Shown in pieces: positions 2,891 to 21,512 of a stretch of DNA of 64,000 nt. Made by a program: the position numbers and the translations under genes. The notes under the pieces are model-generated. The model was given only the letters and a program-made list of their open reading frames with translations, was not told where the DNA came from and ran no database searches. The stretch comes from a bacterium. GTDB lineage: Bacteria; UBA8248. Numbering within the stretch: position 1 is the first letter of the stretch; every line of letters starts with the position of its first letter. The stretch spans positions 1,792,001 through 1,856,000 of the forward strand of contig CBDBEV010000001.1 of assembly GCA_965204535.1 (NCBI GenBank). Reading direction: 5' to 3'.

Positions 2891-3904
2891 ATGCCGGATT
2901 TTTCCAGACCCGTATTCATCGTCAGCGCCCCGCGTTCAGGCTCGACCCTGTTCCGGCTCATCCTGGACGCCCACCCGCGCCTGGCGGTGCCCTCCCCCGC
3001 CTGGCTGTATGAAATGGTCTACCCCTACCTCTACAGCTATGGCGACCTCTCAAGCCCTGAGAACCTCGCGGCCCTCGCCGAGGACATCTTCGAGAGTCCC
3101 TTCATCAAGAACATGAAGCTCGACATCACGCCGCAGGACCTCGTTTCCGCCGCTGCCGAGCCTACCTTCCGGGGGCTTTACGACGCGCTCCACCGCCACT
3201 ACGCCGAGAACACGGGCAAGGAGCGGTGGGGCGAGAAATCCCCCCGCAATTCGTTCTGGATGGAGGAGATCAAAGGGGACTTCCCGGATGCGCAGTTCGT
3301 CCACATCGTGCGCGACGGACGCGACATGGCGATCGACATCGCCGATTCGCCCGAGATGCTGCCCGAGAACGTATATTCGGGCGCGCACGTCTGGAAGGAC
3401 TTTACGGGCACCGCGCACGAATCGGGAAAACGCATGGGGGAATCGGATTATTACGTCATCCGCTACGAGGATCTGTGCGCCGAGCCCGAGAGCGAGCTCA
3501 AGAAACTGTGCGAATTTTTGGGCGAGGACTTTGACGGACAGATGCTGGCCCACCACGAGACGGATTCGTCCAAGAGTTGGAGTTCGCTCCCCAACCATGT
3601 GAAGAGCGGGCGGCCCATCTCCACGCAATACTGCGAGATGTACAAGACGCGCCTGCCTGCGGACGACGTATCCGCGCTCGAAGAAGTGATGGGGGATCTG
3701 CTCGTCGAGTTCGGCTACCCGGTGGGCGGGAGCGCGGAACCCATCCCTGAAAAACTCGCGGCCCAGTTGATGGAGAGCGAGATGATCTCAGCACCCCGCG
3801 TGATCGCCTACCGCAAATGGCACGCCGACCGGCGGCGCGAGCGGCTCGAAGAGGGCGTCTGGAAGCTCGAAGAGAGAAAATCCCTCCTGCGCTCTCTTTG
3901 CTGA
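2891..3904 (+). CDS. Sulfotransferase family protein (paralog 1)
   Basis: 5'-PSB loop VSAPRSGSTL, RWGEKSP, HIVRDGRD, RYEDL; AGGAGG RBS before ATG 2891. Confidence 0.9.
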   Translation: MPDFSRPVFIVSAPRSGSTLFRLILDAHPRLAVPSPAWLYEMVYPYLYSYGDLSSPENLAALAEDIFESPFIKNMKLDITPQDLVSAAAEPTFRGLYDALHRHYAENTGKERWGEKSPRNSFWMEEIKGDFPDAQFVHIVRDGRDMAIDIADSPEMLPENVYSGAHVWKDFTGTAHESGKRMGESDYYVIRYEDLCAEPESELKKLCEFLGEDFDGQMLAHHETDSSKSWSSLPNHVKSGRPISTQYCEMYKTRLPADDVSALEEVMGDLLVEFGYPVGGSAEPIPEKLAAQLMESEMISAPRVIAYRKWHADRRRERLEEGVWKLEERKSLLRSLC

Positions 3905-4524
3905 TGGCGGGAAGGCGGCCGGCGGGCCGAAGCCTGCACCCCTGTTGCAAACAAGCAGGACGGCGGCCCGCGATGCCCGGACCTGATGGGGTTGTTGAAA
4001 AAGCCTTTGTCAAAGGAGCAACCCCCCCTACCCCCCCTTGTCAGGGGGGCAAGAAAAAACAAAAACCCCTCTACCGGCGGCGGGCGTCGCCTTTTTATAC
4101 CCCCCTGACAAGGGGCTGTTGAAAAAGTCCCTGCGCACCCCTCGAATGGCGACTGTAGGGGTCAGACATATATGTCTGACCCCGTGGCCGCCCGTCGGTC
4201 GTATTCACCCAGATACAGCAAGGGCGCGAGGGCCACGGACAGGCACGGGGGCCTGTCCCTACAAAACCAACCCCCCCTACCCCCCCTTGTCAGGGGGGTA
4301 AAAAAAGAAAACCCCACAAAAAAAGGATCAACTCCCCCCTTGAGGGTCTGGCTTCCCGAGGGGAAAGCCAGACGATGAAGCCGAGCGGTTTGTGCGAAGG
4401 CTGAATCGGTGGGGGGTAAAATGCGTTTTATCGCCAGTCCGAATTATACCCCCCACCGAATCGCTTTCGGGCTTACGCCCTCAGCTCTTCGTCTGGCTTT
4501 CCCCTCGGGAAGTCAGACCCTCAA

Positions 4525-6037
4525 GGGGCTGTTGAAAAACCCCTGGTTTTATGATCGTATGGAGTTATCCCCCCTCGCCCGAGATGGGAGATTCCCCGAT
4601 GTTGGACCGCAAGAGGCGCGGGCAGATGGAATTGTTCGTGGCCGGTTCGCTGGAGCAGTTGATTCCCGAAGATTACATATTGTTCCGGGTGAACCGCGTA
4701 CTGGATTTGAGTTGGCTTCGCGAGGAGGTGGCGGAGTGCTATTGCGCGGACAACGGTCGACCGGGGATCGACCCGGAAGTGGTGGTGCGGTTGATGCTGG
4801 CGGGTCTTCTGCTGGGCCACGTTCACGACCGGCATCTGCTTCGCGAGGCGCAGGTGAACCTGGCGATCCGGTGGTTCATCGGTTACGAGCTGCACGAGGA
4901 GTTGCCGGATCATTCGAGCCTGACGCGGATTCGCCAGCGGTGGGGGGAGGCGCGGTTCAAGGAAATATTGCGCCGCACGGTTCAGGCGTGCCTGGAGGCG
5001 CAGGTGGCGAAGGGAGAAGTGGTTCACATGGACGCGTCTTTGATACGCGCGGACGTGAGTTGGGAGAGTCTGGCGGCGCGCCACGCGGAGAAGGTGGTGC
5101 GGGAGAACGACTCGGCGGATGAGGCGGGGAAGAAGGGCGGCGGGGGTTCGGGTCCGGTGAGCCGTACGGACCCCGACGCGCGCCTGGCGCGCAAGAGCGC
5201 TCGGGCGGGGTTCGAGCCGAGCTACAAGCACCACGCGGTGGTGGACGACGAGCGGGGCGTTGTCCTCGACGTAGAGGTGACGGCGGGGACGTTGAACGAG
5301 CGGGAGATGATGGAGCCGCAGTTGGATGCGGTTTGCGAGCTCACGGGTCGCGCGCCCGCGGTGGTGACGGCGGATAGTGGTTATGCGTACTCGAAGGTGT
5401 ATGCGGGATTGGAGCGGCGGGGTGTTGATGCGCTGATACCGGCGAAGAAGGAGCCTTCCCAGAGCCGTGTTCCGCTGCAGTTGTTCCGCTACGACGAGCG
5501 GCACAAGGTGGTGAAGTGTCCGGGCGGCAAGACGCTGCGTCCCCGGAAGGAGACGGAGCGGGGGCGCTACTATGGTTCGAGGACGCGCGATTGCGCGGGC
5601 TGCGCGCTGAGGTCGGATTGTCTGCCCAAGTCGCACACGAGCAGGACGGTGCTGATTCCGCATGAATATCCGGCGCTGTTGCGCGCGCGCCGGCGGCACG
5701 CGCGCCGGGGGGAGGAGGAGGGCCGGCTGTGGCGCCGCCACATGTCGCGTTCGGAGGGCTACCACGGCGAAGCGAAGAGTCGGCACGGACTGGGGCGGGC
5801 GGTGCGCCGGGGCCTTGCGAACATGAGGATCCAGGCCTACCTGACGGCGACTGCGGTGAACCTCAAGCGGCTGGCCGCCGCTTTTGCGGCGGATATATTC
5901 GCTCTGTGGAGGGCCTGGGCCGCCCGGAGACGCCGTCTGCGCGCATATCGCGGCCTCACGCGCCGATTGGGCTTCCTATCCCAAGCCGCGTGAGCCGCCA
6001 TACCCCCTGCTTCAAAACAGGGTTTTTCAACAGCCCC
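4525..6037 (+). mobile_element. IS1182-family insertion sequence
   Basis: Perfect terminal IRs GGGGCTGTTGAAAAACCC (4525) and GGGTTTTTCAACAGCCCC (to 6037) flank a single transposase ORF. Confidence 0.9.
4599..5993 (+). CDS. IS1182-family transposase
   Basis: DUF772-like N-terminus (GRPGIDPEVVVRLML, IRWFIGYELHEELPDHSSL), HMDAS, ADSGY, CPGG...CAGCALRSDC, SEGYHGEAKSRHGL. Confidence 0.92.
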   Translation: MLDRKRRGQMELFVAGSLEQLIPEDYILFRVNRVLDLSWLREEVAECYCADNGRPGIDPEVVVRLMLAGLLLGHVHDRHLLREAQVNLAIRWFIGYELHEELPDHSSLTRIRQRWGEARFKEILRRTVQACLEAQVAKGEVVHMDASLIRADVSWESLAARHAEKVVRENDSADEAGKKGGGGSGPVSRTDPDARLARKSARAGFEPSYKHHAVVDDERGVVLDVEVTAGTLNEREMMEPQLDAVCELTGRAPAVVTADSGYAYSKVYAGLERRGVDALIPAKKEPSQSRVPLQLFRYDERHKVVKCPGGKTLRPRKETERGRYYGSRTRDCAGCALRSDCLPKSHTSRTVLIPHEYPALLRARRRHARRGEEEGRLWRRHMSRSEGYHGEAKSRHGLGRAVRRGLANMRIQAYLTATAVNLKRLAAAFAADIFALWRAWAARRRRLRAYRGLTRRLGFLSQAA

Positions 6038-6291
6038 GACAAGGGGGGGTAGGGGGGGTTGCCTTTATCCCCTGAGGAGGAGGGTTTTCAACAGCCCCGG
6101 ATAAGGCGCGCTTGTGCCGCCTCCTTGGATTCACTATCATGGTCGGCATCCATATTTCATGCGAGTCATGCGCCGCTTGAGGAAGTCCGGTCTATTCGTT
6201 TTCTCTTTCGTTGCGAGAAACCACGAATAAAAGGAGCCGAATACACGGAATCGAAACATAATCTGGGAAAACTGCTCATGGAGGAAGCCCG

Positions 6292-7272
6292 ATGTCCAAG
6301 ATCATGAAATGCATCATCGCCTTTGGTGTTCTGGTATCCGTGGGGGTCGTCGATTCAGCCCCGGCTGAAGCGGCCTATCCCGAGCGCGCCATCAACTACA
6401 TCGTCGCCTACAGGGTCGGGGGCGGCTCGGACAGGACGTCGCGCGCCTTCGTTCCCTTTCTCGAAAAGCACCTGGGCAAGGGCGCCAAGATCGCCATCAT
6501 CAACAAGCCGGGCGCGGGCGGCAACATCGGGTTCAACGCGATAGCGAACGCCAAGCCCGACGGCTACACCATCGGCATGACGAACTTCCCCCAGGCCATC
6601 GTCGGCCCCATCATGGGGAAGGTGAAATACACCATCAAGGACTTCGACTTCCTGGGCAACGTGAACAGGGGACCGACGACGTTCGCCGTGCTCAAGACGA
6701 GCAAGTACAAATCGCTGGCCGACCTCATGGCCGACGTCAAGAAGAACCCCGGTAAAATCTCGATAGGCATGGCGGCGCTCAGCAGCGTCCACAGCATCGG
6801 GACCAGCAAGTTCATGGTCAAGACGGGACTTAAATTCAACAAGGTGCCCTTCGGCGGCGGCGGCCCCGCGCGCAACGCCCTGCTCGGCGGCCACGTTCCG
6901 GTGCTGGCGATCTCGATGTCGGCCATCGCGAAATTCAGGGACAAGGTCAACATCCTCGCCCAGGCAGCGCCCGAGCGGGTGGCCATCGGCTCCTGGGTCC
7001 CGACGTTCAAGGAGCAAGGCGTGGACATCACCAACTTCGTCTATCGTCCCGTGGCCGCTCCCAAGGGTGTGCCGGCGCCCATACTGGCGAAGCTGCGCGC
7101 CGCCTTCAAAAAGGCGATCGCGGACCCGGGATTCCTGAAAGTGGCGAAGAAGCAGAAAGTCGCGGTGGAATACACGAGTGGGGAAGAGATGGCGAAGGTT
7201 GCCAACGATTCTCACATGGCCCACGAGCAGCTCTGGAAGACGAATCCCTGGATGAAGAAGAAAAAGAAGTAA
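6292..7272 (+). CDS. Tripartite tricarboxylate transporter substrate-binding protein (TctC/Bug)
   Basis: Signal peptide, YPERAINYIVAY..GGGSD, NKPGAGGNIG, VPFGGGGP, AAPKGVP. Confidence 0.92.
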   Translation: MSKIMKCIIAFGVLVSVGVVDSAPAEAAYPERAINYIVAYRVGGGSDRTSRAFVPFLEKHLGKGAKIAIINKPGAGGNIGFNAIANAKPDGYTIGMTNFPQAIVGPIMGKVKYTIKDFDFLGNVNRGPTTFAVLKTSKYKSLADLMADVKKNPGKISIGMAALSSVHSIGTSKFMVKTGLKFNKVPFGGGGPARNALLGGHVPVLAISMSAIAKFRDKVNILAQAAPERVAIGSWVPTFKEQGVDITNFVYRPVAAPKGVPAPILAKLRAAFKKAIADPGFLKVAKKQKVAVEYTSGEEMAKVANDSHMAHEQLWKTNPWMKKKKK

Positions 7273-21296: not shown

Positions 21297-21512
21297 CACT
21301 CCCCCCTTGAGGGGGCTGTTGAAAACCCCCTCGCCGAGGGACATTGCCTTTAGCGGGAAGGCCGCTTTCGCGCGAACCCCCGACCTCCCTCTTTGAAAGC
21401 AACCCCCCCTACCCCCCCTTGTCAGGGGGGCAAGAAAAAGCAAAACCCCCTCGACTTGGAGGAGGCGCGTCGCCTTTTTATACCCCCCTGACAAGGGGGG
21501 GTAGGGGGGGTT
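21297..21512. repeat. Q-repeat half plus IS end plus spacer plus family P repeat
   Basis: CCCCCCTTGAG|GGGGCTGTTGAAAA at 21312; P repeat at 21401-21512; 21312-21430 matches the reverse complement of 60495-60614. Confidence 0.82.

Follow-up and report, generated by a model that had tools for sequence, protein, structure and literature searches.

Organization of the repeat block

The window, a stretch of 64,000 nucleotides from a bacterial genome (G000, with contigs C1 and C2; relatives are numbered G0xx and loci Lxxx), contains a block of repeats between a sulfotransferase-family gene and a TctC-family gene. The block combines two palindromic repeats (P and Q), GTAG-type palindromes and the ends of an IS1182-family insertion sequence (IS), and is laid out as follows (window coordinates).

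3988-4018, forward strand: outer IS1182-like left end (L0) with a short end module, from the inverted repeat (IR) scan; G016 has a left end at the matching position with the same spacer before it
4019-4049, forward strand: left arm of the outer P palindrome, read from the sequence
4050-4106, forward strand: outer P spacer together with the inner half of the right arm; the same spacer lies upstream of intact right arms elsewhere
4107-4111, forward strand: GACAA, left copy of a putative 5-bp target duplication, read from the sequence
4112-4262, forward strand: distal left end (L1) and a pair of GTAG-type palindromes, with 97-99% matches at C2:88396, C2:2310368 and C2:345259
4263-4330, forward strand: unpaired P left arm and linker within the cargo; 20 of 26 similar P-left-plus-Q units in G000 end in a P right arm of their own
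4331-4519, forward strand: Q palindrome truncated at its right-arm target, 97% match to the intact Q at C2:1453085; a long hairpin is predicted
4520-4524, forward strand: CTCAA, target of the Q right arm, located before the left end of the IS itself; absent after the IS
4525-6037, forward strand: IS1182-family element of 1513 bp with 18-bp perfect terminal IRs, 26 copies in G000
4551-5993, forward strand: intact ORF for a 480-aa DDE transposase (NF033551, 342.7 bits; DUF772, DDE_Tnp_1_6)
6038-6042, forward strand: GACAA, right copy of the putative duplication, read from the sequence
6043-6060, forward strand: outer half of a P right arm, whose owner could be the outer or the inner P
6061-6098, forward strand: end module and outer IS1182-like right end (R0), from the IR scan; a contig of run X20 spans 6051-6800 without difference

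Between the two GACAA 5-mers lies a 1926-bp unit (4112-6037) in which an intact IS1182 element is preceded by 413 bp of repeats that begin with an additional left end. In total the IR scan found three left ends (3988, 4112 and 4525) and two right ends (6037 and 6098) at this locus, and the end at 4112 is identical to the IS end over its first 15 bp. The segment 4112-4262 corresponds to the first 151 bp of a ~208-bp IR-bounded element that is found whole elsewhere in G000. This ~208-bp unit occupies three sites in G000, where its copies are 96% alike and mostly without target duplication; it is multi-copy, noncoding and enclosed by IS-like IRs, the properties that define an IS1182-type MITE. 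The cargo consists of repeat modules and carries no passenger gene, and scanning 3900-6300 against Rfam gave nothing at the gathering score. Only one IS is present in the block, so it is not a classical composite transposon with two full IS copies around the cargo.

The 5-mers and ends reported in an earlier note on this DNA (GACAA at 4107-4111, ends at 4112, 4525 and 6037, CTCAA before the IS, GACAA at 6038-6042) proved correct letter for letter. An insertion signature is therefore seen at the distal end, where the flanks read GACAA and GACAA, as against CTCAA and GACAA at the IS's own end, although a second parse is possible. The note placed the insertion in the centre of a palindromic repeat; the site is not the centre of the large P palindrome but the middle of its right arm, which is itself a mini-palindrome of C-run, 5-mer and G-run. 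As the note also held, joining position 4111 to 6043 gives the same 30-mer as at 1724-1753 and 21483-21512, and over 154 bp the outer allele so restored has a 94% match to a natural element. Taken alone, restoration of an intact P arm proves little: G000 has 304 P-arm and 299 Q-arm matches, and the P arms are near-identical, so any two half-arms give an intact arm.

Moreover, since a P arm such as that in the cargo is normally closed by its own right arm, the GACAA at 6038 has a second possible owner, namely the inner P's own target, reached through a deletion. The true unit would then be 4112-6098, and the two GACAA would come from different P copies with no duplication: a deletion made by the IS would have removed the DNA between the right-arm target of Q and that of the cargo P, and the far half of the outer P would have been lost separately. 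A P-left-plus-Q unit with its own closing right arm and a similar end module is found at C2:2301450-2302050, and one-sided targets are common, being present in 20 of 98 simple left-right units of G000. The half-arm at 6043 itself does little to identify its owner. Its arm-end variants lean slightly to the inner P (14/115 vs 27/118), outer near-duplications match in both pairings with one mismatch and a one-base slip, and spacer families give no assignment to either P. This coincidence of two P arms requires two independent deletion-type events, and in view of the footprints described below we regard it as quite unlikely.

The locus in related genomes and the support for its assembly

The left flank of the block was matched in 12 of the 22 genomes of the genus, and the end of the gene is visible in 11. 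In seven of these 11 relatives the two genes lie 41-50 bp apart without repeats, in three they are separated by different end-bounded mosaics, and in one the contig ends inside a mosaic. The gene neighbourhood across relatives indicates that the flanks belong together and that the repeat block is a lineage-specific insertion. The comparison with relatives proposed in the earlier note thus yielded a repeat-free locus in 7/11 genomes, but none of the 11 shows the outer element without the block. When the interval 3905-6105 of the window and its orthologous loci (L073-L083) are considered, differing end-bounded mosaics are present in G000, G016, G003, G017 and G018 and none in seven others, and from this comparison the intergenic spot appears to be a turnover hotspot.

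These data also bear on whether the joined flanks could be an assembly chimera or the product of recombination between distant IS copies. Contigs of the public runs X20, X21, X22, X1 and X2 all break at repeats, and none spans the block. Yet the flanking genes are neighbours in 10 relatives, and the unique flanks (3300-4017 and 6051-6800) show zero differences to run X20, which may derive from the source sample, at equal depth (19.2 and 19.3), although a local error within the 2.1-kb repeat block could still have occurred. The reciprocal flanks expected of an exchange (GACAA then CTCAA) are in no IS copy of G000. We therefore consider a joining of unrelated flanks highly improbable. Short joints skipping from ~4111 to 6044 in public contigs were discarded, as their sides are <30 letters long and any of ~300 P arms could give them. 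A full second copy of the cargo was not found in G000 or the 22 genus genomes.

The insertion sequence, its targets and the repeats of G000

The transposase scored 342.7 bits with the IS1182 model against a cut-off of 270, and seven other IS models remained below their cut-offs. The element belongs to the IS1182 family on all four features tested, that is, the transposase, the terminal IRs, the short target duplication or deletion and the palindromic targets.

The earlier note proposed tabulating the 5-bp flanks of all IS copies, and we did so for 114 full-length copies in 8 genomes (26 in G000 and 88 in seven relatives), after exclusion of two G034 copies whose right end could not be located and of a G031 copy that is split. 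Out of the 114 copies, 84 have one of six P/Q 5-mers on a flank, so that a matching 5-mer alone says little, and 94 have the target 5-mer duplicated: 74 exactly and 20 with a slip of 1-2 bases. One further copy has a duplication with one mismatch and 19 have none. Insertion takes place at the central 5-mer of a P or Q arm and duplicates 5 bp; both the choice of target and the length of the duplication are read directly from these copies. In all genomes the fourth base of either IS end is variable and does not track the relatedness of the copies, and an A is added on the left in many slipped duplications; both could reflect conversion or homopolymer errors of long reads. In G034 (L085-L104) a 79%-identical variant of the IS lies in another repeat family, also with 5-bp duplications, and in 3 of 22 G034 copies the flanks resemble left-arm and right-arm targets joined.

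IS-like ends are abundant in G000, with 533 ends in total compared with 2 in a shuffled contig C2, and they bound short units of very varied contents. A second full-length copy exists for 20 of the 98 simple left-right units, and a 5-bp duplication flanks 16 of them compared with 1.7 by shuffling. Repeat elements are themselves inserted in P and Q arms with duplications, for instance at C2:2831681 and C2:2182322. At C1:164723-169664 we observed three tandem IS copies in the same orientation with Q and P modules between them, the middle copy lying between a right end and a left end. Elsewhere, the IS bodies at C2:1111311 and C1:268916 do not differ from each other, and the identity extends upstream through 95 bp of P to a boundary that lacks an IS-like end; judged by its sequence, this P-plus-IS unit appears to have been copied through conversion or by another enzyme. 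In G002 (L024) the whole Q interior is present on both sides of the IS, with the right-arm target at the left and the left-arm target at the right, an arrangement resembling the stem-loop duplication path drawn for IS1272 (PMC5678879 Fig 13).

Distal left ends and the footprints of IS copies

Among the 19 copies without a duplication, four regain one when paired with an unpaired upstream left end, compared with a mean of 0.47 on random re-pairing (P about 0.001). These are this locus (413 bp), C2:1127382 (81 bp), L055 (111 bp) and L067 (53 bp). Extending the count to all 40 non-exact copies adds L070 (27 bp) and gives 5/40 compared with 0.84 expected (P=0.0004), or with 2.06 expected when shuffling is done within genomes (P=0.011), and 4/39 (P=0.005) with this locus left out; the tests behind all these values were devised after the pattern had been noticed, and the copies are kin and non-independent within a genome. 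A random pairing of flanks, as a coincidence of two P arms implies, predicts 0.5-2 matches as opposed to the 4-5 seen. Furthermore, L067 has the same geometry as this locus without a second possible owner of the target. At L055 the distal end lies in unique DNA and not in an arm.

For the other 15 of these 19 copies, no distal end accounts for the missing duplication, indicating that the IS also makes mismatched flanks unaided. Deletions from a left-arm to a right-arm target are seen at C2:2806716, L087, L096 and L098, and they match the stem-loop replacement published for IS1272 (PMC5678879). Insertion followed by deletion therefore had to be weighed as a source of the block and, taken overall, seems possible although doubtful. 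In the version that keeps the same boundaries, an IR-bounded repeat element would have entered GACAA with a duplication, the IS would then have entered its Q arm, and the intervening DNA on the right would have been lost through adjacent deletion, insertion into two targets or recombination between two right ends of 15-18 bp. This stepwise history yields exactly the sequence seen. It draws on processes with precedent, since the IS leaves deletions between targets, as published for IS1272 (PMC5678879, PMC4923244), and repeat elements enter P and Q arms with duplications, as noted above. Its precursors are nevertheless rare. There are 32 copies that have a duplication and lie between an enclosing left end and an enclosing right end; only one of them has an exact outer duplication, which is not a P/Q 5-mer, so that an outer P/Q duplication is found in 0/32. 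Of the 55 nearest downstream right ends, 47 adjoin sequence that is not a P/Q 5-mer; a deletion to an enclosing end would thus rarely leave a P/Q flank, whereas a fresh jump usually should. Stepwise histories should for the same reason mostly leave the right end at non-P/Q DNA, yet L048 is the only one of the 19 in which the IS right end abuts unique DNA. Nor do they give a reason for identical cargo and IS at two sites, as described below. We consider this version unlikely.

Candidate donor-daughter pairs

In G008, the same 27-bp left-end cargo is joined to an identical IS at L069 and at L070, which lie in different arms, and the genome has no third copy of this cargo. L070 has CTCAA on both outer sides. 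The slipped duplication that it also has at its own end is what inheritance of the donor flank would produce. In G000, C2:1011869 and C2:1127382 share an identical 81-bp cargo that ends exactly at the distal end, and C2:1127382 has CTCAA on both outer sides. The IS bodies of this pair differ at 7 sites, three other copies being closer (3 sites), and a third identical copy of the 81-bp module exists without the IS. The same unit at two or more independent sites was thus found for L069/L070 and less cleanly for C2:1011869/C2:1127382, but not for the block in the window. The IS copies nearest to the one at this locus (3-4 substitutions) have other flanks.

Transfer of sequence between copies could in principle give such patterns without transposase. 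By ectopic gene conversion, another copy would have replaced the sequence of an IS resident at GACAA, with pairing over the long IS homology on the right and over the 15 bp shared with the distal left end, and the cargo would have entered along with it. Variants are shared mosaically among IS copies, the pair at C2:1111311 and C1:268916 is of the kind that conversion would leave, and some copies have a foreign 5-mer inside an otherwise continuous arm. However, a 15-bp pairing would have to beat the IS's own left end, which is perfectly homologous, and the event also requires a donor, which was not found. We judge conversion an improbable origin of the block.

Foreign 5-mers of this kind occur on the left in 4 copies (L031 in G011, L064 in G013, and L066 and L068 in G008) and on the right in 1 (L041 in G013). 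In the six identical G008 copies (L066-L071) the left 5-mer is always TTGTC or TCAAA, irrespective of the arm. This suggests either carry-over of a donor flank or gene conversion.

The asymmetry between the two sides extends to the distal ends, with 5 distal-left cases and no clean distal-right case. A downstream right end restored a duplication in 0/19 copies, though right ends are similarly available (62 vs 51 of 114). L026 was formally counted as a distal-right case and rejected, because it has its own slipped duplication in a continuous arm. One tentative reading, which we would not press, is that the right end of the IS is fixed while its left boundary floats, being its own left end, its own end with the donor 5-bp flank, or any look-alike 27-413 bp upstream. 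On this reading the target, made of a C-run, a 5-mer and a G-run and resembling a joined pair of IS ends, would be regenerated by each insertion. If true, the floating boundary would point to a circle or to a single-end-transfer route, and together with the ~530 look-alike ends it would turn the transposase into a permanent means of reshuffling intergenic repeat mosaics.

A proposed origin of the block

Considering these observations together, we think it likely that a single transposition event brought in the whole block, with the transposase pairing the right end of the IS and the look-alike left end at 4112. The history would have begun at a donor site, with an IS insertion at CTCAA in the Q arm of a repeat element bounded by IRs. 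The transposase would then have used the IS right end and the left end of that element, bypassing the IS's own left end, and the resulting 1926-bp unit would have inserted, by cut-and-paste or by way of a circle, at the GACAA of a P arm in an older element (3988-6098). The donor may have been lost or may lie outside the assembly. The donor state, the pairing of the ends and the chemistry are the parts that we infer. The earlier note had proposed such a composite jump through a distal end; in its favour the geometry recurs beyond chance and two sister units have a candidate donor, while on the other side the cargo has no second copy and no contig spans this locus. It is the family-wide evidence that makes use of the distal end probable here.

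Comparison with known transposition systems

Several systems of other transposase families present parts of this behaviour: ISEcp1-type one-ended transposition uses surrogate ends and has a variable far boundary, REP-targeting ISs insert into dispersed palindromic repeats, and IS911 shows targeted insertion beside IR-like sequences. Within the IS1182 family itself, use of an alternative left end is already known from TnSha1 and IS1272L. As described in its report, TnSha1 of staphylococci is made of IS1272, sh-fabI and an alternative left end, IRL', located upstream (PMC4923244). Like TnSha1, the block has one copy of an IS1182-family element, which would combine the right end of the element with an alternative left end lying upstream, at a hairpin target (PMC4923244). 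The two differ in that TnSha1, by the same account, carries a gene, deletes part of the hairpin, makes no duplication, has an IRL' that is 69% identical and occupies many sites (PMC4923244), whereas the block has a cargo of repeats only, a 5-bp duplication and a borrowed end sharing the first 15 bp, and was seen once. The arrangement that defines a TnSha1-type unit, one IS with an upstream IRL-like end in the same orientation, is present at 4525 and 4112. We do not class the block as a proven TnSha1-type transposon, because the unit was seen once and a passenger gene is absent.

IS1272 and IS1272L, of the same family, are likewise described with palindromic targets, deletion between arms and a form, seen at two sites, that has 25 bp of additional left end (PMC5678879), as at L069/L070. 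In that description IS1272 recognises structure without a sequence consensus and makes no duplication (PMC5678879), in contrast to the IS studied here, with its 5-bp duplication in 94/114 copies at a few recurring 5-mers. A circle of IS1272 was not detected according to the same source (PMC5678879). TnCO-1 of Thermoanaerobacter kivui is another case of a single IS1182 with a proposed degenerate distant end; it differs in being an 86-kb circle with a borrowed right end, and its mechanism is left unresolved in its authors' account (PMC12056078). More generally, target duplication or deletion is described as variable in the IS1182 family and its mechanisms as varied and little known (PMC12056078), some members are stated to target palindromes (PMC4923244, citing Siguier 2015), and IS moves with deletions and without duplication are among the events reported (bioRxiv 10.1101/2024.06.02.596822). 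In the literature that we searched, we found no description of the present repeat system.

Implications for repeat mosaics

The earlier note called the locus a direct snapshot of how the repeat mosaics could be assembled. An event of this kind would indeed move and nest modules, and thereby offer one route by which this happens in these genomes. The phrase overreaches with respect to the cargo's own make-up, which the event does not explain: the cargo junction at 4262/4263 is the end of a GTAG-type palindrome and not an IS end. The single locus would hold little surprise for a specialist. The value lies in the surrounding set of 114 copies with readable 5-bp footprints; it provides putative pairs of donor and daughter and an asymmetry between left and right, for a family on which little information is described as available (PMC12056078).

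Two further loci of G000 contain genes associated with the repeats. At C2:1232016-1237568 (L112), the sole DUF559 gene of G000 is bracketed by P repeats; each side also has an IS copy inserted in a P-type arm, and one of these two copies is interrupted by another element. At C1:983551-983739 (L113), a Y1-transposase domain, which we infer to be RAYT-like, is encoded in a 204-aa open frame with GTAG palindromes on either side and a short tandem array of ~60-bp units adjoining. By analogy with REP-associated transposases, the DUF559 and Y1 genes may be spreaders of the P and GTAG units.
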